Positions 45,831-60,948 of a stretch of 64,000 bases of DNA are shown here, piece by piece. The translations under genes and the position numbers were made by a program. A model generated the notes under the pieces. The model was not told the origin of the DNA and searched no databases. It was given only the letters and a program-made list of their open reading frames with translations. Source of the stretch: Candidatus Daviesbacteria bacterium (GTDB lineage: Bacteria > Patescibacteriota > Microgenomatia > Daviesbacterales > UBA10151); contig JACOXD010000006.1 in assembly GCA_016176465.1 (NCBI GenBank), forward strand, positions 71,878 to 135,877, written 5' to 3'. Every line of letters starts with the position of its first letter. Position 1 is the first letter of the stretch.

Positions 45831-45831
45831 T

Positions 45832-46929
45832 ATGGATTTTTTTCACTCCCATATATCTTCATACTCTATTAAACTTGTTAAAGATACTCTAAAGTCTGGA
45901 TTCATCTCTGAAGGTAAATTAGTAAAAAGGTTTGAGGAAGAACTGGAAAAAAAGCTAGGCTTAATAAACCCTATCGCTTTAAATGGCGCAACTTCTGCAC
46001 TGCATTTAAGTTTAGTTTTAGCCGGTGTTTCGCAGGGCGATGAGGTAATTATTCCTGCCCAGACATTCGTAGCTACGGGCCTGGCGGTTTTAATGCAGCG
46101 GGCTAAACCTATTTTTGCGGATATTTTAATAGATAGCGGAAATATTGATCCCCTATCAATTAAAAAAAAGATAACTAAGAAGACTAAAGCAATTATTGCT
46201 GTTCACTGGGGCGGATATCCTTGTGACTTAAAAGAAATTAATGAGATAGCCAAAAAAAATAACCTAGTAGTTATTGAAGACGGCGCTCATGCTTTGGGAG
46301 CAATGTATAGGGGTAAACCAATCGGATCTATTTCAAGATTCACTATTTTCTCTTTTCAGGCTATTAAACATTTAACCACCGGAGACGGTGGAGCACTCTG
46401 CTGTTTTAATAAAAAAGATGGAGATAATGCAAAAGTACTACGCTGGTTTGGAATAGATCGGGCGAACTCAAAACCTTCTATCCTAGGTGAGAGAAAGTAT
46501 AATATTAACCAACTTGGCTTTAAGTATCATATGAATGATTTAGCTGCCTCACTGGGACTTGGAAACTTAGAAGACTTATCTAAAACTATTAAACGTAGAC
46601 AAGAAATCGCTTTGAGGTATCGATCTTCTCTTAATAGAGTTCCTGGAGTTAAACTTCTAGATTATAAAGATGATCGCCAAAGTTCATTTTGGCTTTTTAC
46701 TATATTAGTTAAAAAGCGCAACAAGTTTATAAAAAAACTACTATCAAAAAATATCCCAAGTTCAGTAGTTCATTTAAGAATCGACCATAATAAAATTTTT
46801 GGCGGATTAACTCCTAATCTTTTTAACCAGGAAAGGTTTAACCAAGAACAAATTTCTATTCCTATCCATGATGCGCTGACAGATCAAGATGTTGAACTAA
46901 TTATTAAAACTATAAAAAGCGGTTGGTAA
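45832..46929 (+). CDS. DegT/DnrJ/EryC1/StrS-family PLP-dependent sugar aminotransferase
   Basis: Has GFISEGKLVKRFEEELEK, the PLP-lysine block FSFQAIKHLTTGDGGAL and WFGIDR. Confidence 0.85.
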   Translation: MDFFHSHISSYSIKLVKDTLKSGFISEGKLVKRFEEELEKKLGLINPIALNGATSALHLSLVLAGVSQGDEVIIPAQTFVATGLAVLMQRAKPIFADILIDSGNIDPLSIKKKITKKTKAIIAVHWGGYPCDLKEINEIAKKNNLVVIEDGAHALGAMYRGKPIGSISRFTIFSFQAIKHLTTGDGGALCCFNKKDGDNAKVLRWFGIDRANSKPSILGERKYNINQLGFKYHMNDLAASLGLGNLEDLSKTIKRRQEIALRYRSSLNRVPGVKLLDYKDDRQSSFWLFTILVKKRNKFIKKLLSKNIPSSVVHLRIDHNKIFGGLTPNLFNQERFNQEQISIPIHDALTDQDVELIIKTIKSGW

Positions 46930-46943
46930 ATTTAAGTAAACAG

Positions 46944-47834
46944 ATGTCTAAAATTAGAGTCAGAAAAGCCGTTAAATCCGATGTTCCCAACTTAGTAAAA
47001 TTAATGAACGCTCAATATACTCGTAAGAAGAGTAAGAAATATTTTAAGTGGCAATATTTTAATAATGTTCAAAAAACATATTTAAGCGTAGTTGAGGTAG
47101 ATATGACTATTATAGGAATGTTCGGTTTGCAAATAAGGAGATTGACCAATGGGGCTACAGTAGGTCAGGCAATAGACATGTTGATTGCGCCAAATTACAG
47201 AGGTCAGGGTCTTTTTAAATTCCTTGCGGAAACAACTATCGCCTATTCCAAGACTATCGACCTTGTATGTGTTTTAGCGAATTTAGTTGGCAAAAATGCT
47301 TGTGAGAAAAACCTAGGTTGGCTAACATTACACAAAATCGATTCACTAAATTTTAATTTAGACAAACAAGTCTTTGAGCAAAAAAATAAATTGCCAATTG
47401 ATGGAGATATAAGTTTGGTTAGGTTTAAGCATACCAACAAGTACCACCATTGGCGTTTTGAGATAAATCCTGAGTATCGCTATAAAAAGATTGTGACTAA
47501 ATCCTCGGAATATATTTTTGCTAAGGTATTTAAAGATCGTAAAACTGACGTACAGTATGGCGATGTTGTAGATATCGAATTAAAAAGTATAGAATATGAT
47601 AGGATCTCTCAATTAATAAAAATAGCAATAAGGGATTTTAGGTCTCACAGAATACAAGCTGTAACAACTTGGGCACTTCCTCATACCTTACTCTATAAAG
47701 TTTTAATCAACATGGGCTTCCTTAAAGTCGAGCAAGAAAGGTATTTTTGTATCAAAATTTTAAATCACCGATTCGATTATCTTAAAAGTATTAACAATTG
47801 GTACTTAGTTCAAGCAGATGCAGAAATTTACTAA
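46944..47834 (+). CDS. GNAT-fold N-acyltransferase (probable amino-sugar N-acetyltransferase)
   Basis: GNAT motif A-like GQAIDMLIAPNYRGQGLFKFL. Its position between an aminotransferase and a formyltransferase suggests the role. ATG at 46944 (MSKIRV) is more likely than the TTG at 46923. Confidence 0.5.
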   Translation: MSKIRVRKAVKSDVPNLVKLMNAQYTRKKSKKYFKWQYFNNVQKTYLSVVEVDMTIIGMFGLQIRRLTNGATVGQAIDMLIAPNYRGQGLFKFLAETTIAYSKTIDLVCVLANLVGKNACEKNLGWLTLHKIDSLNFNLDKQVFEQKNKLPIDGDISLVRFKHTNKYHHWRFEINPEYRYKKIVTKSSEYIFAKVFKDRKTDVQYGDVVDIELKSIEYDRISQLIKIAIRDFRSHRIQAVTTWALPHTLLYKVLINMGFLKVEQERYFCIKILNHRFDYLKSINNWYLVQADAEIY

Positions 47835-47844
47835 TATAAAATAA

Positions 47845-48606
47845 ATGTCTAAACTGAAGGTGGCTTATTTAGGTGGTAGGATCTTGGGTTTACAAGGATT
47901 AAAAATCCTCTCGGCTTATAAAAATAAGGTAGATGTTTGTTTTGTAATTGCTAATAAAGAAGATGGCGTTAAAGGTTCAGACTGGGATCCTCCTATTTTG
48001 CCCTATGCTAAATCGCTTGGTTTTAAAACAGCTAAATTAAAATCCCTAAATTCTAAAGCTGCAGTAAAGTTATTTAAGAGTAACGCAGTTGATGTTATTT
48101 TTAATCTTTTTTGCAATAGATTGATCCCGCAAGAAATTCTTGATATCCCTAAATTAGGTGCTATTAACTTTCATTATGGCAAGTTACCACAATACAGGGG
48201 CAGATTCATTGTCAGTCATATTGTTTTAAATAACGAGAAAAAAAGTTTTGCCACTGCTCATTACATGAGTGCAAAAGTAGATACCGGAGATATAATCTAT
48301 GAAAGATCAGTTCCAGTACTGGAAGATGACAGTGCTAAAACACTCTATTTCAGATTTACTAACGCAACACTTGAATTATTTAAAAAGATTTTAAATGACC
48401 TAATTGATGGAAAAGTACTTCCTCGCAGAAAACAAAAAGGGTCGGGCCACTATTATCCGTTTAAAGAAATAAACGGATGTGAGATTAATTTAAACTGGAA
48501 GAAAGATAAAGTAGAGCGATTTATCCGTGCGGTAACATTTGAGCCGATCTCCCGACCTTGGATTCGTATTGGTAATCTTAAATTTGATATTATAGCGCAA
48601 GTATGA
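47845..48606 (+). CDS. Formyltransferase-family protein (sugar N-formyltransferase, Fmt/ArnA-N-like)
   Basis: Formyl_trans_N signature INFHYGKLPQYRGRFIVSHIV (N...H...LP.YRG) and a downstream Asp. Confidence 0.7.
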   Translation: MSKLKVAYLGGRILGLQGLKILSAYKNKVDVCFVIANKEDGVKGSDWDPPILPYAKSLGFKTAKLKSLNSKAAVKLFKSNAVDVIFNLFCNRLIPQEILDIPKLGAINFHYGKLPQYRGRFIVSHIVLNNEKKSFATAHYMSAKVDTGDIIYERSVPVLEDDSAKTLYFRFTNATLELFKKILNDLIDGKVLPRRKQKGSGHYYPFKEINGCEINLNWKKDKVERFIRAVTFEPISRPWIRIGNLKFDIIAQV

Positions 48607-49523
48607 AAATTGCAATTTTGGATAGTGATAGCTTTTTTGGCAAGAACATGCTAAAAATCTTACCCAAAAATTCTTATCAGATTTATCCTCTCTCTAAAGA
48701 AGATAATATTGATTTTTTAAGTTTTAACTCATTAAAAATGGTCTTTAAAAAAATAGCTCCAGATGTAATATTTAATTTTGCCTCTCATCTTGGTGGAATT
48801 CACTACGTCAGCAAATATCAAGCTGATGTAGTTAATGACAATATGCAAATGGTTTTAAGCTTTTATAAGGCAGTCCTAGCCAGTTGCCCAAAAGCAAAAG
48901 TAATCAACCCGATGTCAAACTGCTCTTATCCAGGTGATGCTAATATTCACCAAGAAAGCGACTGGTGGATGGGTGAGGTTCATGAATCTGTTTATGCTTA
49001 TGGGAATGCAAAAAGGATGCAGTATGTAGTTTCTTGCTGTTATAAAAAGCAATATGGAATAAAAAGTCTCAATTTTTTGGTACCTAATTATTTTGGTCCA
49101 GGTGATGAGACTGATCCAACTAAGGTACATGCCCTTCCTGGGATGATTATTAGGATGATAAAAGCACACAGGGAAAAAGCTTCTACATTTGAAATATGGG
49201 GCACTGGCAAACCAATTAGGGAATGGGGTTATATTGATGATTTAATCAATATTTTAATAAAAGGTATTACACTTAAAGAAGATCTAACTTACCCTGTTAA
49301 TATTGCTCAGAATAAAGGATATTCTATTAGAGAATCTGCAAAATTAATTGCAAAAGCGATAGGCTATAAAGGTAAGCTAACTTTCAACACCAATTATCCT
49401 GATGGAGCAGCCATAAAAGTTCTGGATAATCGAAAATTTAAAAGCCTATTTCCTAATTTTAAATTCACCGATCATAAAAAAGCTATTCAAGAAACCGTTA
49501 AGTATTATCTTTCAATTTTGTAA
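48603..49523 (+). CDS. NAD(P)-dependent epimerase/reductase (GDP-fucose-synthase-like SDR)
   Basis: Catalytic YAYGNAKRM (YxxxK) and NYFGPGDE blocks. The N-terminal nucleotide-binding motif is degenerate (ILDSDSFFGKNM). Confidence 0.55.
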   Translation: MKIAILDSDSFFGKNMLKILPKNSYQIYPLSKEDNIDFLSFNSLKMVFKKIAPDVIFNFASHLGGIHYVSKYQADVVNDNMQMVLSFYKAVLASCPKAKVINPMSNCSYPGDANIHQESDWWMGEVHESVYAYGNAKRMQYVVSCCYKKQYGIKSLNFLVPNYFGPGDETDPTKVHALPGMIIRMIKAHREKASTFEIWGTGKPIREWGYIDDLINILIKGITLKEDLTYPVNIAQNKGYSIRESAKLIAKAIGYKGKLTFNTNYPDGAAIKVLDNRKFKSLFPNFKFTDHKKAIQETVKYYLSIL

Positions 49524-50359
49524 TGATGAAAAGGATTTCCTTTTTATTGGCTACCAAAAATAGAGCCAAATTTCTGGAAAAAGCGCTTAAAAATCATCAA
49601 AAACTCCTTAAGGAAAATGATGAATTGATACTAATTGATGGCGGATCATCAGATGACACAATCAAAGTGGCTAAAAAGTTTTCAAAAATAATTAGTGTTT
49701 TTATTTCAGAAGCGGATATTAGTGAGGGACACGCCTTTAATAAAGGTATTCTACTATCCAGTGGGAAATATATCAAAATCCTCTCTGATGATGATATATT
49801 CTTCTCTCAAGCAATAGAAAATGCCTACACCATAATGGAAAAAAATCCAGATATTGATGTTTTACTTTGCGGAGGAGTCAAATTAAGAGGGAAAGATTTA
49901 TCTTTTGCTTACGCCCCTCCCGGAGTGGACTATGGAAAAAAGGTTTCAGATGTTTTTAAGTATGGGGGGTGTGGGTTAGGGCTTTTAATTAGAAAAAAAT
50001 CTTTTGCGCTAACAGGTTTATTTAATCCGTACTCTTTTTCTTTAGATAACGATTATATTACTCAGGCTATTAATAGCGGTGCTAATGTAAAATTCTGTCG
50101 AATCAAGATGTTCCATCACTTCCTGGAAGACCATAGCGGTTCTATTAAACAGGGTGAAAGATTAAGGAAAGATATCGCTAGGATTAAGAATCGCTACAAC
50201 TATTCAGATGAAAACTTTTTTTTGAATTTAAGAGTGAGTTTCTCTCAAATTCTCTTTCCTTTACTTCCTAAAAATATCCAAACTGCCTATAAAAAAATAT
50301 TTAAACTAACAAAAAGCAAACCAAAAATCAAACCCATTTGGGATGGAGGTTTTAGCTAA
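49523..50359 (+). CDS. GT2 glycosyltransferase
   Basis: ISFLLATKNRAKFLEKAL...ILIDGGSSDDT...ILSDDDIF. Confidence 0.65.
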   Translation: MMKRISFLLATKNRAKFLEKALKNHQKLLKENDELILIDGGSSDDTIKVAKKFSKIISVFISEADISEGHAFNKGILLSSGKYIKILSDDDIFFSQAIENAYTIMEKNPDIDVLLCGGVKLRGKDLSFAYAPPGVDYGKKVSDVFKYGGCGLGLLIRKKSFALTGLFNPYSFSLDNDYITQAINSGANVKFCRIKMFHHFLEDHSGSIKQGERLRKDIARIKNRYNYSDENFFLNLRVSFSQILFPLLPKNIQTAYKKIFKLTKSKPKIKPIWDGGFS

Positions 50360-50366
50360 TCTTATT

Positions 50367-51344
50367 ATGTCAAAGAAAGTTCTAATCACTGGGGCAGGAG
50401 GATTTATTGGTTCACACCTGGTAGAAAGGTGTGTACAATTAGGATTCAAAGTTAAAGCTTTTGTTCATTATAACTCTGCTAATCGATGGGGCTGGTTAGA
50501 TAATTCTATACATAAAAAAGAGGTTGAAGTTGTTTCTGGGGATATTCGAGATTTTGACTCAATATATAACTGCCTAAAAAATTGCGACACGGTATTTCAC
50601 CTAGCAGCTCTAACAGGGATTCCCTATTCCTATATCTCACCTCTAGCTTATATCAAAACTAATGTTGAAGGAACTTATAATATTTTAGAGGCTTCCAGAT
50701 TAAGAGATGTTAAAAATATAGTGATAACTTCCACAAGCGAGGTTTATGGGAGCGCGGTGTATACTCCAATTGATGAAAACCATCGACTTTTTGGTCAATC
50801 TCCCTATTCTGCTTCCAAAATTGCTGCTGATCAATTAGCTTTAAGTTATTATTTATCTTTTGGCTTACCAGTAAAAATTGCTAGACCTTTTAACAGTTAT
50901 GGACCAAGGCAGTCGGCCCGCTCAATCATTCCAGCAGTCCTAACTCAAATTCTTTCTGGTGCAAAAAAAATAAGGGTTGGAAATCTTAATACCGCTAGGG
51001 ATTTTACTTATGTTAGTGATACCGTAGAAGGTATAGTGGAAATTAGCAAGTCAAGTCAGTTATTTGGTGAGGTCACTAATATAGGTTCTAATAGTAGCCT
51101 CAAGATGGTTGATTTGGTGAAACTGTTAAGTGATTTAATCGGGATCAAAGTTAAAACAGTAGCAGATCCATCTCGTATCAGACCAGATAAAAGCGAAGTT
51201 GAGAATCTGCTTTGTAATAATTCTAAACTAATCAGACATACCAGCTGGAAGCCAAAGCTTAACTTAGAAGAAGGACTCACAGAAACAATTAAATGGTTTA
51301 AGGAAAATCATCATTTATACAAAGATGAAATTTACAATATTTAG
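50367..51344 (+). CDS. NAD-dependent nucleotide-sugar 4,6-dehydratase/epimerase (extended SDR)
   Basis: VLITGAGGFIGSHLVERC (GxxGxxG), TSTSEVYG, and YSASKIAADQL (YxxxK). Confidence 0.75.
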   Translation: MSKKVLITGAGGFIGSHLVERCVQLGFKVKAFVHYNSANRWGWLDNSIHKKEVEVVSGDIRDFDSIYNCLKNCDTVFHLAALTGIPYSYISPLAYIKTNVEGTYNILEASRLRDVKNIVITSTSEVYGSAVYTPIDENHRLFGQSPYSASKIAADQLALSYYLSFGLPVKIARPFNSYGPRQSARSIIPAVLTQILSGAKKIRVGNLNTARDFTYVSDTVEGIVEISKSSQLFGEVTNIGSNSSLKMVDLVKLLSDLIGIKVKTVADPSRIRPDKSEVENLLCNNSKLIRHTSWKPKLNLEEGLTETIKWFKENHHLYKDEIYNI

Positions 51345-52058
51345 ATGAAAGCTGTTATTTTAGCTGGAGGGTTAGGTTCAAGACTTGCTCCTTTTACTCA
51401 AATAATTCCCAAACCCCTACTTCCTATTGGAGAAAGTTCGGTGTTAGAAATTCAAATCTTAAGTTTAAAAAAACACGGCTTTGATGAAGTCTTTATAGCT
51501 ACTAATTATTTAGCTAAATATGTAAAAGCATTCTTGGGCAAAGGAAAAAAATATGGAATCAAAATTAGCTTTAGTCAAGAGAAAAAACCTCTAGGAACTT
51601 GTGGTCCCATAACACTTTTAAAAAGTAAGCTAACTGAACCTTTTTTTCTATTAAACGGAGATATCCTGACTACTTTAAATTTTAGGAAAGCCTATGATTT
51701 TGCTTTAAAAAATGAAGCAAATTTAGTTGTTGTTACAAAAGAGATTCCTGCCCCATTTGATTTTGGAAACGTAAAATCAAGAGGAGATTATTTAATTGAT
51801 GTTGAAGAAAAACCAAATTTTAAGTTAGAAATACTGGCTGGGATGTATATTATGAAACCAGCTATTTTTGACCTTATTCCTAAAAATACCTACTACGGCA
51901 TTGATATGCTCATTAAAAAGATGGTCTCTAAAAAAATGAAAGTGGGAAGATATTTAATGAAAGAATATTGGCTTGATATAGGTAAAGCTTCCGATTATAC
52001 AATCGCTCAAGAGCAGTACCATAAGAGGTTTAGTAAATTAAAAGATGGCAAAAAATGA
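51345..52058 (+). CDS. Sugar-1-phosphate nucleotidyltransferase (NTP_transferase family)
   Basis: MKAVILAGGLGSRLAPFTQIIPKPLLPIGE is the canonical G-x-G-T-R-L signature region. Confidence 0.8.
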   Translation: MKAVILAGGLGSRLAPFTQIIPKPLLPIGESSVLEIQILSLKKHGFDEVFIATNYLAKYVKAFLGKGKKYGIKISFSQEKKPLGTCGPITLLKSKLTEPFFLLNGDILTTLNFRKAYDFALKNEANLVVVTKEIPAPFDFGNVKSRGDYLIDVEEKPNFKLEILAGMYIMKPAIFDLIPKNTYYGIDMLIKKMVSKKMKVGRYLMKEYWLDIGKASDYTIAQEQYHKRFSKLKDGKK

Positions 52059-52956
52059 TAGGGTTTTAATACTTGGTGGAGCAGGATTTATTGGATCTAA
52101 TATCGCTAAAAAGTTTGTTTCTCAAAATTACAAAGTAACTATAATAGATGGATTCTTACCTCAGACAGGAGCGAATCTAAAAAATCTTCGAAGTATTCTA
52201 AATAAAGTTAAGCTTATTAGGAAAAAGGTTGAGAAGATAGATAATCTAGAAAAGCAAGTGGCAGACAATAATTTGATCATTGACTCTATGGGATGGACAC
52301 GACATATATCCGGCATGGAAAATCCACTTTATGATTTAGAGCTTAACTTACTCTCCCATATAAGCTTAATTAACGCTCTTAGAAAACTGCCAGGAGTAAA
52401 GGTTATATATCTAGGCTCTGAGGGCCAGTATGAACCTTTTGATGTGCAAGGAATTAATAAGCAAGCTGCAGAGACCTATTTTAAAAGTTTCTCAAAGATA
52501 TATGGATTTAGTACTCTTTCACTTCGTATCTCCCATTGTTTTGGGCAAAATCAACCAACTAAGGATACTGATATAGGTTTAGTGGGTTTATTTATTAGAA
52601 ATCTACTCACACATAGATTAATCAGGGTATTTGATAAAGGAAGGAAACGTAACTTTATTTATGTTGAAGACCTTACGGAAATAATCTTTTTACTGTCAAA
52701 GAGAGAATTTAGTGGCTTTTCTTCTCTAGATGTAAACGCTTATAGTATAGTCCTGGAGGAGTTGGCGCAAAAATTGATTAGGATTGTGGGCTTTGGCGAG
52801 TATAAGAAAGAAGTATTACCTAAAAACCTCGTAGTTAATGATAATTATCATAGCTTAGATACAGTAGAGTTAAAAAAAATGATTGGTCAATTTCCTAAAC
52901 ACCAATTTGACAAGGCTCTTATTGCAACTGTTAATTACTTTAAGGAAAACCTATGA
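52045..52956 (+). CDS. NAD-dependent epimerase/dehydratase (SDR)
   Basis: VLILGGAGFIGSNIAKKF Rossmann motif, about 300 aa. Confidence 0.6.
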   Translation: MAKNDRVLILGGAGFIGSNIAKKFVSQNYKVTIIDGFLPQTGANLKNLRSILNKVKLIRKKVEKIDNLEKQVADNNLIIDSMGWTRHISGMENPLYDLELNLLSHISLINALRKLPGVKVIYLGSEGQYEPFDVQGINKQAAETYFKSFSKIYGFSTLSLRISHCFGQNQPTKDTDIGLVGLFIRNLLTHRLIRVFDKGRKRNFIYVEDLTEIIFLLSKREFSGFSSLDVNAYSIVLEELAQKLIRIVGFGEYKKEVLPKNLVVNDNYHSLDTVELKKMIGQFPKHQFDKALIATVNYFKENL

Positions 52957-54047
52957 TTTTACGCGCAGACATTCTGGCTCAATATAAAACTCACAAAAAA
53001 GAAATAAATTCCGCTATACAAAAGGTTTTAAATTCTGGGTATTATATCCTGGGTAAAGAGGTGGAAGGATTTGAAAAGGAATTTGCAAGATATTTAAAAG
53101 TAAAATTTGGGGTTGGAGTAGCATCAGGCACGGATGGATTAATTCTTTCCCTTAAAACTTTAGGTATAGGCGTGGGAGATGAAGTAATCACTAGTGTTTA
53201 TAATACTTTTGCCACTTCATCAGCTATTATTGCTGCTGGAGCAATCCCAAAATTTGTTGATATAGATTACCAAACATTTTTGCTTGATATAAAAAAGATC
53301 CCTTTAGCAATTACAAAAAAAACTAAGGCAATTATTCCTATTCACCTATTTGGAAATGTGGTTGATATCCCTGCTTTAATAAAAATTCTTTCTAAACAAA
53401 TTCCAATTATAGAAGATGCTTGTCAGGCTCATGGAAGCAAAATCAGTGATCAATTTGCCGGATCGATTGCTCAAATTGGGGTTTTTAGTTTTTACCCTAC
53501 CAAAAACTTAGGAGGCTATGGGGATGGAGGCATGGTAGTTACTGATAATAAAAAAATTGAAAAAAGATTAAAACTACTTAGAAACTATGGCATGATAGAT
53601 AAAGATCATATAATCCAACCTGGAGTAAATAGCCTGTTGGATGAGCTACAAGCAGCAATTTTGCAAATAAAGCTTAAATATTTAGAATATGGTAATCAAA
53701 AAAGGCAGGAGATTGTAAAACAATATAAAGCTAAATTAAGATCTGATCTATTTGAATTTCAATTAATTCCTAAAAATGTTTACTGCAACTTTCATATTTT
53801 TGCTGCCAGGTTTAAGAAAAATAGAGCCAAGTTTATTAGTTATCTAACTGAGAAAAAAATTCAAACAAATATTTATTATCCCCTGCCTCTTCATTTACAG
53901 AAAGCATTTCAGTTTTTAGGGTATAAAAAAGACGATTTTCCAATCGCTGAAAGGTTAGCAAAAGAAGCTATTGCTTTACCAATTTACCCGCAGCTTCTAA
54001 AGGAAAATCTTGACTATATAATTTCAACTATTAACTTCTTTAAATGA
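52953..54047 (+). CDS. DegT/DnrJ/EryC1/StrS-family PLP-dependent sugar aminotransferase (ArnB/Per-like)
   Basis: Has GYYILGKEVEGFEKEFARYL, DACQAHGS and the PLP-lysine block FSFYPTKNLGGYGDGGMVVT. Confidence 0.85.
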   Translation: MILRADILAQYKTHKKEINSAIQKVLNSGYYILGKEVEGFEKEFARYLKVKFGVGVASGTDGLILSLKTLGIGVGDEVITSVYNTFATSSAIIAAGAIPKFVDIDYQTFLLDIKKIPLAITKKTKAIIPIHLFGNVVDIPALIKILSKQIPIIEDACQAHGSKISDQFAGSIAQIGVFSFYPTKNLGGYGDGGMVVTDNKKIEKRLKLLRNYGMIDKDHIIQPGVNSLLDELQAAILQIKLKYLEYGNQKRQEIVKQYKAKLRSDLFEFQLIPKNVYCNFHIFAARFKKNRAKFISYLTEKKIQTNIYYPLPLHLQKAFQFLGYKKDDFPIAERLAKEAIALPIYPQLLKENLDYIISTINFFK

Positions 54048-54964
54048 GAATAATCTTAGCTGGTAAACATGAGCTATCTTGCACTCTGTTTGAAATCCTA
54101 AAGAAATCTTTTTCAAAAAACACCCTGGGGTTTATAACCTCTAAATCTGAGGATCAAAAGAGACGTAAATCCCTAAAGCGGTTATTATCTAAACATAAGA
54201 TTTTAGCCTTAAATAAAGATTTTTCGGATCAAGAGCTCAAAAAAGTTATCTTGATATTTAAACCTGATCTAGTTATCTCTGCTGGGTTTGACAAGATTTT
54301 AAAGAGGGATTTAATAAAAAAAATTCCTCTTGCTATTAATATCCACTTCGGGCTATTACCAAAATATAGAGGTTCTTTCTCTATCCCTTGGGCAATCATT
54401 AATGAGGAAAAATATATTGGTATCACAATTCATAAAATTGTTCCCGGAATTGATAGTGGTGAAATAATCTTACAGTCTAAAATTAAAAACGATCCAAATC
54501 TTTCATGTAAACAGATCTATTTTGATGCTGTTAAATATGCTTCATTGCTTACCAAAAAAGTCTTGGACTCAGTTCAAAGAGGCAAGAAATTAATCACTAC
54601 AAGACAAGATACAAAGAAGGCTACTTTTTTCCCCTTTAAAAAGCCTTATGATTTTCAAATAGATTGGAGCAGTCGTGCAAAGTTTGTCTTTAATTTAATA
54701 AGGGCAGCTTTTTTCCCTCCTTATGATCCAGCCTATTCAATCTTACAGGGCAGAAAAATATTTTTTTACTTTCCCATAAATTTAAAAAAAGTTAAACTTA
54801 AATTTTCTCCTGGGGAAATTATTTATTATCAAAAAAATTACTACATAGCTTGTCAAGATGGATTAATTAAGCCACAAAAAGTTAGGGTAGCGGCCAGAGT
54901 TTATAACTTTAATCAATATGTTAAGCTAGAGAAATTAGAATGTCACCCAGCTCAATCTCTGTAG
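54044..54964 (+). CDS. Formyltransferase-family protein with C-terminal domain (sugar N-formyltransferase, ArnA-N/Fmt-like)
   Basis: INIHFGLLPKYRGSFSIPWAIINEEKYIGITIHKIVPGIDSGEII, i.e. the N..H..LP.YRG formyl-transfer signature plus the ligand-binding Asp. Confidence 0.75.
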   Translation: MRIILAGKHELSCTLFEILKKSFSKNTLGFITSKSEDQKRRKSLKRLLSKHKILALNKDFSDQELKKVILIFKPDLVISAGFDKILKRDLIKKIPLAINIHFGLLPKYRGSFSIPWAIINEEKYIGITIHKIVPGIDSGEIILQSKIKNDPNLSCKQIYFDAVKYASLLTKKVLDSVQRGKKLITTRQDTKKATFFPFKKPYDFQIDWSSRAKFVFNLIRAAFFPPYDPAYSILQGRKIFFYFPINLKKVKLKFSPGEIIYYQKNYYIACQDGLIKPQKVRVAARVYNFNQYVKLEKLECHPAQSL

Positions 54965-55629
54965 TTATCCCTATTTATAACGAAGCCAAATTAATAAACA
55001 AATCAATCCCTCTAATAAACTTTTTCTTGAAAAAAAACTTTAAAGACTATGAAATTATTATTATTGAAAGTGGTAGCACTGATAACTCCTACCAACTATC
55101 TGAGAAACTCACAAAAAAGTATCCAAAGATTAAACTTATTTCTCAAAAACGCCGTGAGGGCTTTGGGTCTGCTCTTAGATTAGGTTTTCAAAAGGTAAAT
55201 AAAAAGTTAGTCTGGCCTTTAGTAATTGATCTTCCTTACCCTTTAGAGTCGATACTTAAGGCTCTTCCCTATTTTGATAGCTACGATTGTATTTTAAGCT
55301 ATAGATCATCTGATAACCGAAGCTTTTCTAGAAAGCTGAAATCTACTATTTATAACTTTTTAGCTAAAATAATCCTAAATTTGCCAATGAAGCATATTAA
55401 TTCTGCTTTTAAGGTTTATAAAAAATCAGCTTTGGATAAGATGAAACTAACTTCTAGCGGATGGTTAATTGATTCCGAGATACTTTATCAGATAAAAAAA
55501 CAAAAGATATCTTATATTGAAATACCAATAGGGTTAAAGAAAAGAACAATGGGTAAATCCTCTATTAATCTAGCTACTCCAATTCAGTTAATATTTGATT
55601 TAATTTCTTTCCGCTTAAAACAAAAATGA
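54940..55629 (+). CDS. GT2 glycosyltransferase, polyprenyl-phosphate sugar transferase-like (ArnC/DPM1-like)
   Basis: ISVVIPIYNEAKLI...EIIIIESGSTDNS; small (229 aa); adjacent to the aminotransferase/formyltransferase genes as arnC is in arn operons. Confidence 0.65.
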   Translation: MSPSSISVVIPIYNEAKLINKSIPLINFFLKKNFKDYEIIIIESGSTDNSYQLSEKLTKKYPKIKLISQKRREGFGSALRLGFQKVNKKLVWPLVIDLPYPLESILKALPYFDSYDCILSYRSSDNRSFSRKLKSTIYNFLAKIILNLPMKHINSAFKVYKKSALDKMKLTSSGWLIDSEILYQIKKQKISYIEIPIGLKKRTMGKSSINLATPIQLIFDLISFRLKQK

Positions 55630-57248
55630 ATCTAAAAATATTTTTACTAATCCTAAGCTTGGGAATATTGATTCACTTTCTTCCAAATTTAAATATCCCC
55701 TTACATAGTGATGTTACCTGGTATTTCAGGTTGCAAGCTACCAATAATCCTAAATTAATAGAATCTATTCCCGAGGGCTTTAAAGAATTTGGAGCCTATC
55801 CAATGCCTATATTTGAATCCATAGTCAATTGGTACCAACTAACAGGCAGGATTAATGTTTTGGACTATTTATCTTTAAGACTCTTTGCTTTTTTAGCAGG
55901 TGCTGATGCGAATTTATGGAGGTTTTTTTATATACTGATTCTTTCATCAAGCATCACTCTTTTTTATCTGATTTTAAAAAAACTAAATATTCCAGCTAAA
56001 ATTGCCTTGTTTTTTTCTATAGGATTTTTCTTTATTCCTATTGATATTTGGACTGACTATAAAAGCGCAGAACCAAAAGCACTCCTTTTTTTAATGTTAA
56101 GTCTTTATTTTGGATTAACCTCCAAAGATAGGTTACATTCTTTACTAAGCTGCACTTCCTTGCTGGTGGCACTTTTATTTAAAGAAACCTTTATCCTATC
56201 CTTACCTGCTATCTTGGGACTTATTCTTTGGAAGGAAAAAGTTATAGACCAGATAAAAAGACCTGTAGTTGTGACTGTACTTCCTTATTTAGTCGTAGTC
56301 CTTATTATAGCTTTATTTAGCCTATCTTTTAGATTTTTAATTCCAATGAAAACATCTGGTTATGTAATTGCGCCCTTTTCTCAGTTAGATTTTTTATCTT
56401 ATCTTTTAAAATTCACTCCATCTTTGATTCCCGGGCTTTTATTAGGAATAGGACCATGGCTAATTACTTTATCTTTGATCTTAATTTTTATTAGTTTTAA
56501 ATACCTTAAAATGGAAAAGGTTAAGAAATTTTACCTAAATGCTTCATTCTTAACTCTTATCCTTATTCTTCTTTGCACAATTTTACTTAATATCTTGCTT
56601 TATTATTTAACAAATAGAGATTTTAGAGATAGATACTTACTGCCTAGCAATTTTTTTACTGCTTTAACTCTAGCGCTACTTACTATACCACTAACTACTC
56701 AACTTTACTCTAAGTTAAAAAAAAATAAAGCCAAACTATCTATTATTTATCTATCTATTTTGATGATTTTATTTTGTTTTCAATTTATTAAGGTGATTGA
56801 TGTTTCATTCCAAAATAGAATTGACCAAAACGCTTGGCAAAGTTTAATAAATCAAGTAAAAATTAAGGTTCCAAAAAATGGACATATTTTAATCTCAATA
56901 AATGATCCTTTCCTTATTGAAACAGCCCAAAGTCTTGAAGCTAATACACTGTTTTTAGGTAGATATGACCTAACTTATCATCTAGTAGCAGCCAGGGAAT
57001 TAAAAGAATACCAGAAAGGAAAAGATTACTTAGCTTTTTTAATTTCCTCGTTTAATAAAGATAGAAAGTCGCTACCTCTTAAGAAAGAAGGTAAAATTCT
57101 AACTATTCATCTTGAAAGACCCAAAACAACTATCCCTTATTTCCCATTTAGTCTAAAAAGCTTAATTGTTAACCCAAAATCTTACCTATACCAGCGATTT
57201 ATAAAAAGTAAACAACCCTATTTAAAATACTCAATCCTTATTTCATAA
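55626..57248 (+). CDS. Polytopic membrane protein, putative GT-C glycosyltransferase (ArnT/PMT-like), low confidence
   Basis: 540 aa with at least 11 predicted TM helices. Its position directly after the ArnC-like GT2 suggests the role; no unambiguous DE motif was seen. Confidence 0.35.
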   Translation: MNLKIFLLILSLGILIHFLPNLNIPLHSDVTWYFRLQATNNPKLIESIPEGFKEFGAYPMPIFESIVNWYQLTGRINVLDYLSLRLFAFLAGADANLWRFFYILILSSSITLFYLILKKLNIPAKIALFFSIGFFFIPIDIWTDYKSAEPKALLFLMLSLYFGLTSKDRLHSLLSCTSLLVALLFKETFILSLPAILGLILWKEKVIDQIKRPVVVTVLPYLVVVLIIALFSLSFRFLIPMKTSGYVIAPFSQLDFLSYLLKFTPSLIPGLLLGIGPWLITLSLILIFISFKYLKMEKVKKFYLNASFLTLILILLCTILLNILLYYLTNRDFRDRYLLPSNFFTALTLALLTIPLTTQLYSKLKKNKAKLSIIYLSILMILFCFQFIKVIDVSFQNRIDQNAWQSLINQVKIKVPKNGHILISINDPFLIETAQSLEANTLFLGRYDLTYHLVAARELKEYQKGKDYLAFLISSFNKDRKSLPLKKEGKILTIHLERPKTTIPYFPFSLKSLIVNPKSYLYQRFIKSKQPYLKYSILIS

Positions 57249-57354
57249 AAAGTTATTTTTTAAATATTTTGACTTTTACTTGAAGCTAAAGCTTGTAAAA
57301 AAATACCTTATTGCATTTTTTTTTGAAATAACATATTCTAAAAAAGCCACTCAC

Positions 57355-58464
57355 ATGCCCAAAAAGAGAGAATTAAAAATAGGTAATAAAATTATAGATG
57401 ACTCTTCTGACTGCTTTGTTGTAGCTGAGATTGGACAAAATCACCAAGGAGATGTTGAGGTTTGCAAAAGACTTTTTGAGGCTGCCAAGTTCTGTGGTGC
57501 TGATGCGGTAAAATTGCAAAAAAGAAATAATCGAACTTTATATACTAGAAAATTCTTTGACTCCCCGTATAACTTTGAAAATGCTTTTGGCCCAACCTAT
57601 GGCAAGCATAGACAAGCTCTGGAATTTAATAAAAAGGAGTATAGAAAGCTTAAAAAATATGCTGAAAAGTTAGGTTTAATTTTTTTTGCAACTGCCTGGG
57701 ATGAAAGCAGCGGCGACTTTTTGGAAGATTTAGATGTTCCAGCTTTCAAAATTGCTTCAGCAGATCTTATCAACACTCCCCTTTTAAAATATATCGCCAA
57801 ATTTAAAAAACCAATGATTGTAAGTACAGGAGCAGCCACCATAGACGATGTCAAAAGGGCTTATCAAGAAGTAATGCCAATAAACAACCAGCTTTCTTTA
57901 CTCCACTGCACTGCTGTTTATCCTGCCTCAGCAGAGTATCTAAACTTAAAAGTCATTGAAACTTACCGCCAAGAGTTTCCGGAGATTGTCATTGGATTTT
58001 CCAACCATTTTAACGGCATTTCTGTTGACCCAGTGGCTTACTGTTTAGGAGCCCGAATTATTGAAAAACATTTTACTTTAAATCGGGCAATGCAAGGCTC
58101 AGATCATTCTTTTTCGCTAGAGTTTGAAGGAATGAGGAAGCTGGTTAGGGATCTAAGAAGAGTCCGCCTGGCACTGGGAGATGGCTTAAAAAAGTTTTAT
58201 CCTGAGGAAGAACCAGCTAAGTATAGAATGGGAAAGTGCATTGTCACTACAAAATCACTGCCTGCAGGGCATATCTTGACAAAAAAAGATCTGGCTCTAA
58301 AATCACCCTGTGAAGGTCTACCCCCTTATTTATTAGATGAGTTAATTGGCAAAAAAACTATTGTTGCCTTAAAAACAGACCAGCCTCTTTCTCTAAAGCA
58401 TTTAGAATCTTTTAAAAAGCCTGCCAGAAAGACAAATGGTCATCAATCCATCTTCCCTACTTAA
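57355..58464 (+). CDS. NeuB-family sialic-acid-type (ulosonic acid) synthase with C-terminal SAF domain
   Basis: CFVVAEIGQNHQGDVEVCKRLFEAAKFCGADAVKLQKR (the AEIGxNHNG...A.K.Q NeuB signature) and a C-terminal SAF/antifreeze-like block GKCIVTTKSLPAGHILTKKDL. The likely start is ATG at 57355 (MPKKREL). Confidence 0.85.
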   Translation: MPKKRELKIGNKIIDDSSDCFVVAEIGQNHQGDVEVCKRLFEAAKFCGADAVKLQKRNNRTLYTRKFFDSPYNFENAFGPTYGKHRQALEFNKKEYRKLKKYAEKLGLIFFATAWDESSGDFLEDLDVPAFKIASADLINTPLLKYIAKFKKPMIVSTGAATIDDVKRAYQEVMPINNQLSLLHCTAVYPASAEYLNLKVIETYRQEFPEIVIGFSNHFNGISVDPVAYCLGARIIEKHFTLNRAMQGSDHSFSLEFEGMRKLVRDLRRVRLALGDGLKKFYPEEEPAKYRMGKCIVTTKSLPAGHILTKKDLALKSPCEGLPPYLLDELIGKKTIVALKTDQPLSLKHLESFKKPARKTNGHQSIFPT

Positions 58465-59362
58465 AGACTTAAATAAAAATAACCTTAAGTCCAAAGTCAT
58501 TCAGTCTGATAAGTTTGGTAGAGCATTTTTGGCTTTAAATCGAATTACCCAAACAGGCAAGGTTGAACAACACGATCAAGCATCTGATATTACTTTTATT
58601 CTCCAAGGAGAAGCCAAATTGGAAAAAGATGGAGAAATTGAGGATAAAACCTTAAGATCTTTACATGAATGGCAGGGAACAAAAATTAAAAATGGAAGAT
58701 ACTTAGCTGTTAAAAAAGGAGACTTATTAATTATTGAGCCTGGAAGTCCTCATCGGTTTATTATTACAAGATCATCCCAGTTAGTCTATTTAACTTTTAA
58801 GAAATATCTTTCTGATTATATAGAAATAGAAAAATTAGATCCTAATCTAATTGAAAAAATAAAAAAGATTGAAGGAATAATAATGGATGTTGACGGGACA
58901 ATGACTGATGGAAAGGTTTTGGTAAATGATCAGGGAGAGGAGTTTGCCTCTTTTTCTCGGATTGACTCTTTAGCGCTTTTACCCTGGCAAGGAATGGGTA
59001 AAAAAGTAGGCGTTATCTCTAGAGAAGAGATCTCTATTGCCAGTGCTAGAGCCAAAAAGTTAAAGATTAATTGTGTCCAAAATATTAAGGATAAACTTCA
59101 AGCTGCAGAAAAAATGATTAAAGCTTGGAAGCTAAGCTGGGATCAAGTTTGTTTTATAGGAGATGATGTTAATGATATTTCCCTTTTGCAAAAGGTTGGC
59201 TTTTCTACTTGTCCAAAAGATGCCCAGCCTCAAGTTTTAGAAGTTGTTGATTTAGTACTTCCTAAAAAAAGAGGAGACAGTGTTATAAGAGAACTGCTAG
59301 ATTTAATATTTTTAGTACAACTTGGCAAATATCCAGAAGTTTACGAGAGAGAAAAATCTTAA
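58436..59362 (+). CDS. Cupin domain fused to a KdsC-like HAD phosphatase (ulosonate-phosphate phosphatase)
   Basis: The C-terminal half IMDVDGTMTDGKVLVNDQGEEFASFSRIDSLALLP...CFIGDDVNDISLL matches KdsC/YrbI-type HAD (DxDG...GDD.ND). The N-terminal ~140 aa has a cupin-like beta-barrel block (ITFILQGEAKLEKDGE...LLIIEPGSPHRF). Confidence 0.65.
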   Translation: MVINPSSLLKDLNKNNLKSKVIQSDKFGRAFLALNRITQTGKVEQHDQASDITFILQGEAKLEKDGEIEDKTLRSLHEWQGTKIKNGRYLAVKKGDLLIIEPGSPHRFIITRSSQLVYLTFKKYLSDYIEIEKLDPNLIEKIKKIEGIIMDVDGTMTDGKVLVNDQGEEFASFSRIDSLALLPWQGMGKKVGVISREEISIASARAKKLKINCVQNIKDKLQAAEKMIKAWKLSWDQVCFIGDDVNDISLLQKVGFSTCPKDAQPQVLEVVDLVLPKKRGDSVIRELLDLIFLVQLGKYPEVYEREKS

Positions 59363-60189
59363 TGGAAAGATTTAGATTAGATGGAAAAATAGCGGTTGTA
59401 ACAGGAGCGCTTGGGTTACTTGGACCTACTTTTTGTGAAGGTTTGTTGGAGGCTGGTGCAACAGTTATAGGAATTGACTTAACAACCCAAGTCCCAGAAA
59501 GATTTAGGGTTTTACAAGAAAGGTTTGGTGATGATAAAGCAGGAGTGGTAAGAGCAGATATTACTTATAAATCTGAAGTTGATGAGGCTCTGGCTGCATG
59601 TATTAGAAGGTTTGGTGTTCCAGCTATTCTAGTAAATGCTGCTGGGATAGATAAGCCTCCCTTGGCAAGTGCCAGATCCTACCCGCTTGAAGAGATTCCC
59701 CTGGAGGTAAATAGAAGATTTCTGGAGGTTAATGTGCTTGGAACATTTAGGATGATGCAGGTTTTTGGGGGTGCGATGAGAAAGCATGAAATCAGGGGAA
59801 GTATTATTAATATTGGTTCACAATATGCTGATGTTGTACCTGACCCTCATTTTTATGATCATTTAAAAGGATTTTTAAAACTCCCTATATATGGGGCATC
59901 CAAAGCTGCTTTGATTGAACTAACAAGAGAGTTCGCAGTTCACTTTGGAAGATACGGAATTAGAGTTAACGCACTTTCTCCTGGAGGTATTTATAATGAA
60001 CAAAAACCACAAGATCCAGAGTTTTTAAGAAAGTTTTCTGAAAGAGTTCCGTTAGTTAGAATGGAATATCCTCATAGAATGGGCTTTGCTCATGAGTTAA
60101 TTGGGCCACTTTTATTTTTAGCTTCTGAGGCTTCATCTTATATGACTGGAGAAAATTTAAGAGTTAATGGAGGATTTACTGCTCTCTAA
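59362..60189 (+). CDS. Short-chain dehydrogenase/reductase (classical SDR)
   Basis: Has GKIAVVTGALGLLG (TGxxxGxG), NAAG and YGASKAALIELTRE (YxxxK). Local GC is about 50%, much higher than the window average. Confidence 0.8.
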   Translation: MERFRLDGKIAVVTGALGLLGPTFCEGLLEAGATVIGIDLTTQVPERFRVLQERFGDDKAGVVRADITYKSEVDEALAACIRRFGVPAILVNAAGIDKPPLASARSYPLEEIPLEVNRRFLEVNVLGTFRMMQVFGGAMRKHEIRGSIINIGSQYADVVPDPHFYDHLKGFLKLPIYGASKAALIELTREFAVHFGRYGIRVNALSPGGIYNEQKPQDPEFLRKFSERVPLVRMEYPHRMGFAHELIGPLLFLASEASSYMTGENLRVNGGFTAL

Positions 60190-60194
60190 ATTTA

Positions 60195-60941
60195 ATGGTT
60201 AGAATTAAAAAAAATAAAAACAACTCTATACCCAAAGTACTAGGGGTGGTGGGAGCCAGATCTGGCTCAAAATCTATTCCTTATAAAAATATTTATCCCC
60301 TAGCTGGAAAACCCTTAATGGCCTGGATTATTGAGGCTGCTAAAAATGCCAAATTTATCACCAGACTGATACTTTCAACAGACTCTGAAGAGTTTGCTAA
60401 AATAGGCAGGATCTACGGCGCAGAAACGCCTTTTTTAAGGCCTTTAGAACTGGCAACAGATGAGGCAGATGATATATCCTATCTGACCCATGCTGTTTCC
60501 TACCTTGAAAAAAATGAAAACTGGAAACCAGATATTATCTTAAGGCTTCCTGCAACCTCTCCTTTTTGTAGTAGTGAAAGTATAGATGCTTGCATCCAAA
60601 TTTTATTAGATGATCCTAAAGCTTCCTCTGCTAGAACTATAAAAAAAACTCCTAAGCACCCTTTTAAACAATGGAAGATAGAGGGAGATGAGCTAAAACC
60701 TTTTTTGCCAAAGGAAATTACAGGCTTAAAAGAACCGTCTCAAGCCTCAAGGCACTCTTTTCCCCCAGCTTATGCCCATGTCGATGTAATAGCTGTCCGC
60801 TATAATACTTTAATGAAAGAAGGGCTACTGACTGGAAAAAGAACCCGTTTTGTCTTGTTAAATAGTGAGGCGGCTATTGATATAGATGATTTAAATGATT
60901 TTTTACTTGCAGAAATAATTATTAAAAGAAAACTTAGCTAG
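60195..60941 (+). CDS. CMP-ulosonic acid synthetase (acylneuraminate/Kdo cytidylyltransferase, CTP_transf_3 family)
   Basis: VLGVVGARSGSKSIPYKNIYPLAGKPLMAWII...LSTDSEEFAKIGRIYGAE is the canonical NeuA/KdsB N-terminal signature. Confidence 0.8.
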   Translation: MVRIKKNKNNSIPKVLGVVGARSGSKSIPYKNIYPLAGKPLMAWIIEAAKNAKFITRLILSTDSEEFAKIGRIYGAETPFLRPLELATDEADDISYLTHAVSYLEKNENWKPDIILRLPATSPFCSSESIDACIQILLDDPKASSARTIKKTPKHPFKQWKIEGDELKPFLPKEITGLKEPSQASRHSFPPAYAHVDVIAVRYNTLMKEGLLTGKRTRFVLLNSEAAIDIDDLNDFLLAEIIIKRKLS

Positions 60942-60948
60942 ATTAGAT

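Follow-up and report, generated by a model that had tools for sequence, protein, structure and literature searches.

A candidate three-component glycosylation cassette with a sugar N-formyltransferase and a GT-C-like membrane protein in a Candidatus Daviesbacteria bacterium

What would a set of genes laid out like those of the Arn lipid A modification pathway do in an organism that is unlikely to make lipid A? The question is raised by a 64,000-nucleotide stretch of DNA from a Candidatus Daviesbacteria bacterium (contig JACOXD010000006.1; the whole stretch is hereafter the window), in which genes for a short-chain dehydrogenase/reductase (SDR), a DegT aminotransferase, a formyltransferase, a small family 2 glycosyltransferase (GT2) and a large polytopic membrane protein follow one another on the same strand. 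The original prediction, made from the sequence of the window, held that this order mirrors Arn logic, in which a 4-amino sugar is N-formylated, moved onto undecaprenyl phosphate by a GT2, flipped and transferred by a GT-C enzyme, and that the acceptor cannot be lipid A if the cell is CPR-like and of the Gram-positive type. The observation itself is confirmed and the interpretation is partly supported. The explanation that we consider best, and hold to be probable with real room for doubt, is a three-component system of the Arn/Gtr type in which an N-formylated amino sugar is placed on a lipid carrier and attached outside the cell by a GT-C enzyme. The gene families, the catalytic residues of the formyltransferase, the predicted folds, the remote homology and the conserved synteny on which this explanation draws are established here.

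The gene cassette and its relatives

Open reading frames (ORFs) were called anew, and of the 55 in the window that reach 100 aa, 54 were scanned against Pfam. The five plus-strand ORFs returned at exactly the coordinates given before (52045-52956, 52953-54047, 54044-54964, 54940-55629, and 55626-57248), with an overlap of 4 to 25 nt at each junction. Their Pfam calls agree with the claimed order: Epimerase/SDR, DegT_DnrJ_EryC1, Formyl_trans_N with Formyl_trans_C, Glycos_transf_2, and a 540-aa protein without a family. The five belong to a series of 18 genes (44955-62835) that all point the same way and meet at junctions of between -29 and +31 nt. The 540-aa protein is 100% identical to NCBI HYS91_03010, a hypothetical protein of Candidatus Daviesbacteria bacterium, and the source organism is a bacterium of the candidate phyla radiation (CPR), as had been supposed. 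Together with two genes immediately upstream, the five probably form one cassette (50343-57248) devoted to extracytoplasmic glycosylation of the three-component (Arn/Gtr-type) kind:

50343 to 51344, plus strand: NAD-dependent sugar-nucleotide 4,6-dehydratase, LegB-like (Pfam GDP_Man_Dehyd, 229 bits)
51345 to 52058, plus strand: sugar-1-phosphate nucleotidylyltransferase, 237 aa (Pfam NTP_transferase, 128 bits)
52045 to 52956, plus strand: atypical extended SDR (Pfam Epimerase, 83 bits) with an intact NAD-binding motif, GGAGFIGS
52953 to 54047, plus strand: pyridoxal phosphate-dependent sugar aminotransferase of the DegT family, called DegT2 (Pfam DegT_DnrJ_EryC1, 338 bits)
54044 to 54964, plus strand: two-domain sugar N-formyltransferase (N- and C-terminal domains), built like the N-terminal half of ArnA (Pfam Formyl_trans_N, 80 bits; Formyl_trans_C, 34 bits)
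54940 to 55629, plus strand: short GT2 of 229 aa, of the polyprenyl-phosphate glycosyltransferase type (ArnC/DPMS/GtrB-like) by sequence and fold (Pfam Glycos_transf_2)
55626 to 57248, plus strand: polytopic membrane protein of 540 aa with about 11 transmembrane (TM) helices, predicted GT-C fold and remote PMT_2/PMT homology

The window proteins were compared with thirteen related loci, of which three came from a scan of genome contigs, two, as short fragments, from a scan of metagenome contigs, and the rest from exact look-ups. In every one of the 12 loci with upstream DNA (window included), a GT2 of the 54940 subfamily (GT2c) lies within 10 kb of the gene for the membrane-protein homolog, hereafter the GT-C gene, and the arrangement is therefore real and not a matter of chance. 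GT2c is directly upstream of the GT-C gene in 8 of these 12, and at most a 335-aa methyltransferase and/or a 118-aa EamA protein stand between the two. The order in CPR genomes reads (LegB-like dehydratase)-NTP transferase-Tyr-less SDR-(DegT2)-(formyltransferase and/or NeuD/PglD-like acetyltransferase)-GT2-(methyltransferase)-(EamA)-GT-C-(NeuB and further genes), with variable members in parentheses; the locus L013 is near-syntenic with the window and has both acyltransferases. Outside the CPR, a Rhizobiaceae metagenome-assembled genome (MAG; locus L003) carries DegT2 (48% identity), formyltransferase, GT2, a flippase-like protein and a methyltransferase, followed by NTP transferase (58%), SDR, and GT-C, and a marine contig (L014) carries DegT2-GT2-NTP-SDR-GT-C. 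Because these two have it, the cassette is not CPR-specific. Judged by the sequences compared, its core is the NTP transferase, the Tyr-less SDR, the GT2 and the GT-C protein, and amination and N-acylation (formyl or acetyl) appear to be variable tailoring.

Predicted activities of the cassette proteins

The GT2 at 54940 is predicted from sequence and modeled fold to be a polyprenyl-phosphate glycosyltransferase, which bears out its description as ArnC/DPM1-like. In the PDB, only ArnC of three species (E 1e-15 to 1e-13, the ArnC alignment spanning residues 5-223) and an archaeal dolichyl-phosphate mannose synthase match its sequence over the full length, whereas ordinary GT2s align over the first 80-120 residues only. 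An AlphaFold 2 (AF2) model built on 43 homologs reached a predicted local distance difference test (pLDDT) score of 93, and its top 16 Foldseek matches are exclusively ArnC (TM-score 0.81, 2.7 Å root mean square deviation), DPMS and GtrB, the three solved polyprenyl-phosphate glycosyltransferases. The protein is free of TM helices, and its last element is an amphipathic helix, at the point where ArnC and GtrB go on into TM helices. The subfamily reads 'ESGS' for the 'DDGS' of ArnC and 'xVD' for its DxD, and residues N14, E15, E38, S46, D48, D97, and R122 are invariant in an alignment of 54940 with 42 homologs (224-252 aa, all without TM helices). The score against the NCBIfam ArnC model is 66 bits (cutoff 529). 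With about 65 matches at ≥35% identity versus 11, the GT2 subfamily seems larger than the GT-C family with which it is paired.

The membrane protein at 55626 appears, from remote homology and a modeled fold, to be a GT-C enzyme of an uncharacterized family that is distant kin to the PMT_2/ArnT type and not a member of it. No Pfam family matched even at E ≤ 1, a profile search of PDB sequences returned nothing, and the sole NCBIfam match, to CBO0543_fam, is a weak one that misses its cutoff of 35 bits (19.7 bits, E 7e-4). Close relatives number only 11 in 5.8 billion clustered proteins; an exhaustive profile search with the family found 180 representatives at E < 1e-3, 51 of them at E < 1e-30. 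The protein has a C-terminal α/β domain of about 145 aa, and the top 18 Foldseek matches of its AF2 model (pLDDT 75, predicted TM-score 0.78) in the PDB are all GT-C enzymes (PglB, STT3, AftA, ArnT, ALG9, and AglB).

A second line of evidence comes from the weak tail of the family profile, which reaches proteins that pass the threshold of the Pfam PMT_2 model (P0070 with E 9e-13 and P0084 with E 5e-8, library-wide). When 49 family representatives were aligned with 75 tail proteins using hhalign, the two sets matched over 430 columns with 99.9% probability and an E value of 3.6e-34. The 75 tail proteins include 18 matches to PMT_2, six to PMT, and three to TMTC, and no other membrane-protein family recurs among them, single Wzy_C and Cation_efflux matches aside. 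Enzymes of the PMT_2, PMT and TMTC families use polyprenyl-monophosphate-linked monosaccharide donors. The GT-C character and an ArnT/PMT relationship, both put forward tentatively in the original prediction, thus hold at the level of fold and remote kinship, and what falls away is membership: there is no PMT_2 or ArnT Pfam match at E ≤ 1, and the proteins form a separate family. A Wzy/WaaL-type function was also considered for 55626 and set aside, as only 1 of the 75 remote relatives matches Wzy_C and such folds are not among the structural matches.

Conserved residues of the family are concentrated where a GT-C active site would be expected. The earlier reading saw no DE motif; the first loop does hold an acidic residue, Asp29, that is invariant in the 11 closest homologs and present in 94% of the 49 family representatives. 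It directly follows TM1 and aligns one column off the DD motif of the PMT_2-like tail, and in GT-C enzymes of known structure the Asp put forward as catalytic is likewise located after TM1 (PMC11127046). Other conserved positions are R75, W142/E149, K186-E187, Y246, and R331/Y337/P340, and in the C-terminal domain E432, R446, D448, and N477 are invariant. Loops between the model helices that we take as cytoplasmic hold 19 Lys or Arg in 64 residues versus 14 in 163 residues for the external ones, and by the positive-inside rule all conserved polar residues and the C-terminal domain would therefore lie outside the cell.

The formyltransferase at 54044 looks, by sequence, like a relative of the N-terminal half of ArnA and not its equivalog. 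Among solved structures it is closest to the ArnA formyltransferase domain (E 9e-22, residues 4-275 on 4-274), as anticipated, and the Asn-His-Asp triad is intact (N99/H101/D137, corresponding to N102/H104/D140 of ArnA); against the bifunctional ArnA model of NCBIfam it scores 115 bits (cutoff 777). The solved relatives that come after ArnA are the sugar N-formyltransferases WbkC, WlaRD, and QdtF. The alternative of a Met-tRNA formyltransferase (Fmt), for which the score equals that of the ArnA-type model, was rejected on operon context and on the best solved relatives, which are sugar formyltransferases. Among the related loci the formyltransferase varies, a NeuD/PglD-like acetyltransferase either replacing or accompanying it, and in most loci an ortholog of one or the other immediately precedes GT2c, often with an overlap. 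As the original prediction had noted, no ArnD-type deacetylase (PF01522) was found among the scanned window ORFs, nor was one found in the precomputed Pfam lists of L004-L006 and L009-L014, and we infer that the formyl group is kept on the final glycan.

The remaining genes would supply the donor sugar. The dehydratase at 50343 scores 431 bits against the NCBIfam LegB model TIGR04180 (cutoff 475), its orthologs (59-61% identity) lie directly upstream of the NTP-transferase/SDR pair in the CPR loci L004, L005, L010, and L012, and it probably catalyzes the first committed step toward the donor sugar. Among solved structures, the nucleotidyltransferase at 51345 is closest to mannose-1-phosphate guanylyltransferases (104 bits), and its best NCBIfam models are MurU, archaeal GlmU and ManC-like ones (about 120-127 bits, every one below cutoff). 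Its orthologs immediately precede the Tyr-less SDR in L003, L005, L010, L012, L013, and L014, and are separated from it by two genes in L004. Since these closest solved relatives are guanylyltransferases and the dehydratase is LegB-like, the donor nucleotide may be GDP.

The SDR at 52045 departs from the expected type in that the catalytic Tyr of YxxxK is replaced by Gln (DVQGINK). Matches to all solved SDRs are weak (≤61 bits, with 45 bits for UXS-type structures), and the NCBIfam model NF008872 gives 21 bits (cutoff 294). The replacement (D[VI]QG[IV]xK) is kept in the orthologs at L003:8994-9932, L004:6850-7815, L005:2729-3679, and L010:2168-3124, that is, in a subfamily that spans the CPR and the Rhizobiaceae MAG, and other SDRs of the same loci retain PYGxxK. 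That this gene is a counterpart of the C-terminal half of ArnA, a UDP-glucuronate decarboxylase, is ruled out by QxxxK in place of YxxxK and by the low UXS-type scores. From its sequence, the Tyr-less SDR may carry out a non-redox step, as an isomerase or epimerase, or may be inactive; that it provides the missing non-redox step before C-3 amination is speculation on our part.

DegT2, in turn, was expected to resemble ArnB, and does not. Its scores against solved structures are 330 bits for 7b0d, 269 for QdtB, 238 for DesV, 223 for WlaRG, 204 for WbpE, and 173 for NtdA, compared with 137 bits for ArnB and perosamine synthase structures and 183 bits for the NCBIfam ArnB model (cutoff 631). The comparison does tell C-3 from C-4 types, because the other DegT of the window (45832) scores in the reverse order, with AtmS13, CalS13, TlmJ, and ArnB above QdtB. 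By similarity, then, DegT2 groups with the C-3 (QdtB/DesV/WbpE-type) aminotransferases.

The proposed pathway and competing explanations

Put together, the predicted activities suggest the following route. In the cytoplasm, the nucleotidyltransferase (51345) would activate a sugar-1-phosphate, and the LegB-like 4,6-dehydratase (50343) would make a keto-deoxy sugar from the NDP-sugar, to which the Tyr-less SDR (52045) may add a non-canonical step. The DegT enzyme (52953) would then aminate the sugar, probably at C-3, and the ArnA-N-like enzyme (54044) would N-formylate it. The GT2 (54940) would move the formamido sugar onto polyprenyl phosphate at the inner face of the membrane, and the lipid-linked sugar would be flipped by a protein for which the window offers no recognized gene and the relatives offer candidates. 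Finally, the GT-C enzyme (55626) would pass the monosaccharide to a surface acceptor by means of Asp29 and of the C-terminal domain that faces outward. What we infer are the lipid-linked intermediate, the pathway's direction and the identity of the sugar, and the claimed sequence of N-formylation, polyprenyl-phosphate loading and GT-C transfer outside the cell fits the data from sequence, predicted fold and synteny.

Candidates for the flipping step are present in several related loci. L011 and L012 encode the 118-aa EamA protein between the methyltransferase and the GT-C gene, and its best NCBIfam models are ArnE (38 bits, cutoff 92) and ArnF, both below cutoff. In L003 a TIGR00374 flippase-like membrane protein (LPG_synthase_TM, MprF-type) directly follows the GT2. 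ArnE and ArnF are absent from the window by tblastn and by a scan for hydrophobic ORFs, and no GtrA or LPG_synthase_TM protein was found among its 54 scanned ORFs. A 120-aa hydrophobic ORF without a family match (20420-20782, minus strand; grand average of hydropathy 0.95) overlaps the start of an opposite-strand GT2 at the beginning of the glycosylation island described below, and could be a small flippase-type protein or no gene at all.

As to the acceptor, no lpx or kds genes were found among the 54 window ORFs scanned, and lipid A genes are missing in the CPR genomes studied (PMC5220378). Because those genomes lack lipid A synthesis, the acceptor here is not lipid A, in line with the original prediction. 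A Glyphos_transf gene and a NeuB module adjoin the cassette in the window, L011, and L013, and for this reason a teichoic-like, cell-wall or ulosonic-acid-containing polymer, or else a surface protein, is a plausible acceptor.

We also put forward a bolder and more tentative proposal, whose chances we rate as rather low: that 55626 founds a new GT-C family at the CAZy level, which hands an amino-deoxy sugar that retains its N-formyl group from polyprenyl monophosphate to a surface polymer or protein other than lipopolysaccharide, and that the Tyr-less SDR performs a non-redox step (keto-isomerization or epimerization) that feeds the C-3 aminotransferase. No description of this GT-C family or of the cassette was found in the searchable literature, which likewise yielded nothing relevant on PDB 7B0D, on ArnT in Patescibacteria, or on formyltransferase, undecaprenyl and GT-C in combination.

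Several observations weigh against a three-component system that handles a formamido sugar. No flippase was recognized in the window by Pfam scan, by the hydrophobic-ORF scan, or by tblastn with the EamA protein of L011 and the flippase-like protein of L003. The GT2 lacks both TM helices and the first Asp of DxD. The fold scores of 55626 are modest (TM-scores of 0.35-0.41, E about 1e-3 to 1e-4) and fail to discriminate between an ArnT-like and a PglB-like enzyme, and an hhalign comparison of the family with the PMT_2 protein of the window (30674) was not significant (probability 0.2%, with a single-sequence template), so that the PMT_2 link rests on the intermediate tail proteins. Loci L005 and L010 lack DegT2 and the formyltransferase, and L004 lacks DegT2 and has a different formyltransferase with N and C domains; these two activities may be optional tailoring steps. 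Lastly, DegT2 is of the C-3 type, yet a 3,4-ketoisomerase (cupin) is absent and the SDR lacks its catalytic Tyr, and the chemistry from dehydratase to aminotransferase is therefore unexplained.

A different use of the same enzymes is suggested by what lies downstream, where the co-directional run goes straight on with genes for NeuB (57280), a KdsC-like phosphatase, an SDR, a PseF-like cytidylyltransferase and a transketolase. The dehydratase, nucleotidyltransferase, DegT enzyme and formyltransferase could feed this NeuB/CMP module to give an N-formylated nonulosonic acid of the legionaminic or pseudaminic type, with the GT2 and the membrane protein as mere neighbors that serve a different sugar or the final assembly of the glycan. 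NeuB adjoins the GT-C homolog in L006, L011, and L013 too, the dehydratase is LegB-like (431 bits), and the NeuD/PglD-like acetyltransferases of related cassettes recall the Leg pathway. Set against this, no hydrolyzing 2-epimerase of the LegG/NeuC type was found among the Pfam-scanned ORFs of the window, DegT2 sides with the C-3 aminotransferases and not with LegC, PseC, or PglE, and the NeuB module has a phosphatase and a transketolase of its own, which point to a sugar-phosphate route. In addition, L003 and L014 carry DegT2-(formyltransferase)-GT2c and NTP-SDR-GT-C with NeuB absent within the 10-kb flanks, and the formyl- or acetyltransferase orthologs abut GT2c upstream in most loci. We regard a nonulosonic-acid pathway as an unlikely account of the cassette.

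The downstream module has features of its own. It extends from 57280 to 62835 and comprises NeuB, a protein in which a cupin/YhcH-like domain is fused to a KdsC-type phosphatase (58436-59362), the SDR, the PseF-like cytidylyltransferase, and the transketolase, and it is kept at L013:11964-21842 with the addition of APH-type kinases and an aldehyde dehydrogenase. This composition suggests that a CMP-activated nonulosonic or octulosonic acid is made by an unusual route through sugar phosphates.

Less likely again is a conventional pathway on undecaprenyl diphosphate, in which the GT2 would be an ordinary cytoplasmic enzyme that extends a lipid-linked oligosaccharide with the formamido sugar, and the membrane protein, like PglB, PglL, or Wzy, would act as an oligosaccharyltransferase, polymerase or ligase on the complete glycan. 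PglB and STT3 are the best Foldseek matches of 55626, slightly ahead of ArnT, the island holds many further GT1 and GT2 genes, and L012 encodes both a Wzx-like Polysacc_synt protein and a priming enzyme of the Bac_transf type. However, the GT2 is closest in sequence and fold only to polyprenyl-monophosphate enzymes, with ordinary GT2s confined to its first 80-120 residues. The similarity of 55626 to PglB goes no further than the GT-C superfamily (TM-scores of 0.36-0.40), its sequence lacks the WWD of the WWDYG motif as well as any STT3 or Wzy Pfam match, and its remote relatives PMT_2, PMT, and TMTC use monophosphate-linked monosaccharide donors. The strict one-to-one pairing of GT2c and GT-C over the loci is moreover a hallmark of three-component systems (PMC11127046). 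The classical Arn pathway, that is, modification of lipid A with 4-amino-4-deoxy-L-arabinose, is effectively refuted, since what speaks for it, the gene order and the closest solved kin of formyltransferase and GT2, is set against a CPR organism whose studied kin lack lipid A genes (PMC5220378), a window in which no lpx or kds genes and no ArnD were found among the 54 scanned ORFs, the lack of a UDP-glucuronate decarboxylase and of an ArnT Pfam match for 55626, scores far below cutoff for the ArnB, ArnA, and ArnC equivalogs of NCBIfam, and an aminotransferase of the C-3 type.

The cassette is part of a wider setting. From about 20.7 kb to its end the window is a single large glycosylation island with no fewer than six small GT2s, a number of GT1/GT4 enzymes, a carbamoyltransferase, several methyltransferases, and two further genes referred to above:

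30674 to 32068: bona fide PMT_2 GT-C protein, within the glycosylation island
62832 to 63881, minus strand: Glyphos_transf gene, adjoining the cassette and NeuB module

A second amino-sugar module lies upstream of the cassette (45832-50359) and encodes a C-4-type DegT (45832), a 303-aa GNAT-like protein, an N-domain-only formyltransferase (47845-48606), a GDP-fucose-synthase-like SDR (48603), and a GT2 (49523). In L001 (CAZJBV010000002.1) and L002 (CAZFVS010000001.1) the GT-C homolog is flanked by parts of this module and not by the 52045-55629 genes. Both MAG contigs are labelled 'uncultured Gammaproteobacteria', yet the stretches retrieved have 33-35% G+C, genes like those of CPR loci, and up to 68% protein identity to the window, and the label may be wrong.

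Further membrane proteins are encoded in the island. Three paralogous polytopic proteins of 888-962 aa (28015-30681, plus strand; 37972-40845 and 40818-43706, both minus strand) share 26-33% identity with one another; one has a weak PTPS_related (PF10131) match, homologs (identity up to 52%) are encoded close to the GT-C gene in L004, L005, and L009, and the three, too, may be GT-C-like enzymes. Another protein, of 395 aa and with some 10 TM helices (43746-44933, minus strand), divergent to the adjoining GT2 (44955) and without a match in Pfam or NCBIfam, could be another GT-C-like enzyme, a flippase or a polymerase. A NodU/CmcH-type carbamoyltransferase (33216-34970), flanked by a GT1 and a methyltransferase, suggests that the surface glycan contains carbamoylated sugars. 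Elsewhere in the window, leucyl-tRNA synthetase is spread over two overlapping minus-strand ORFs, one of 188 aa with the N-terminal catalytic part (15918-16484) and one of 615 aa with the editing, catalytic and anticodon-binding parts (14116-15963), which could reflect a frameshift, an assembly error or a truly split gene.

Significance and comparison with known systems

The envelope of CPR bacteria (Patescibacteria) is largely unknown and the organisms are mostly uncultured, and the cassette offers a concrete, testable route to surface decoration in a Daviesbacterium, with a GT-C family that occurs in a few Proteobacteria too. The underlying principle is already established, and new GT-C families are still being described. 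If the proposed system is real, it would add such a family, would extend the logic of formylating a sugar, loading it onto a lipid, flipping it and transferring it beyond lipid A modification, and would provide a portable set of seven genes (about 7 kb) for heterologous reconstitution and for glycoengineering with formamido sugars. The Tyr-less SDR and a polyprenyl-phosphate GT2 without DxD are separate enzymological puzzles.

The cassette falls within none of the defined families. Among known systems, Arn (PmrHFIJKLM; Enterobacteria) shares the overall plan, in which an NDP-amino sugar is N-formylated, moved by a GT2 onto undecaprenyl phosphate, flipped and transferred outside by a GT-C enzyme. 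ArnA-N and ArnC are also the closest solved relatives of the cassette formyltransferase and GT2, and related loci have an ArnE/F-like protein. In contrast to Arn, the cassette has an aminotransferase of the C-3 (QdtB) type, replaces the oxidative decarboxylase with a LegB-like 4,6-dehydratase and a Tyr-less SDR, lacks ArnD, has a GT2 without the two TM helices of ArnC and a membrane protein of another GT-C family, and must serve an acceptor other than lipid A.

The sugar chemistry has its nearest counterpart in the N-formyltransferases of O-antigen sugars (WlaRD, QdtF, FdtF, WbkC, VioF, and Rv3404c), with which the cassette enzyme shares the catalytic fold and the triad and would share NDP-3- or 4-amino-deoxyhexose substrates made by DegT enzymes; WlaRD and QdtF partner C-3 aminotransferases of the QdtB type. 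In those systems, however, the formamido sugar enters repeat units linked to undecaprenyl diphosphate via ordinary cytoplasmic glycosyltransferases, with no routing through polyprenyl monophosphate and a GT-C enzyme. On the side of the membrane protein, the PMT_2/PMT/TMTC enzymes (GT39, GT83, and GT105-like) show profile-level homology to the 55626 family over about 320-430 residues and a similar layout of motifs (an acidic residue in loop 1, a GR that ends loop 1, a W..E in loop 2, KE(S/T)F and RY..P). The 55626 family differs from them in having no direct Pfam match, a C-terminal domain of its own of about 145 aa, and a single Asp in loop 1 (HSD29VTW) in place of DD or DE.

The three-component systems of the Gtr type are GtrA/GtrB/Gtr* for O-antigen glucosylation, CsbB/GtcA/YfhO for teichoic acid, GacI/GacJ/GacL of streptococci, and the GT136 pentofuranose systems (PMC11127046). 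Like the cassette as proposed here, they pair a polyprenyl-phosphate sugar synthase with a GT-C enzyme, have a small or MATE-type flippase nearby in some loci, modify a glycoconjugate that is assembled elsewhere, and occur in monoderm and diderm bacteria. The cassette is distinguished from them by a GT2 without a membrane anchor, by a GT-C family that is not a described one by Pfam and NCBIfam, and by an operon that itself encodes the multi-step tailoring of the donor, from the dehydratase through the aminotransferase to the N-formyl and/or N-acetyl transferase.

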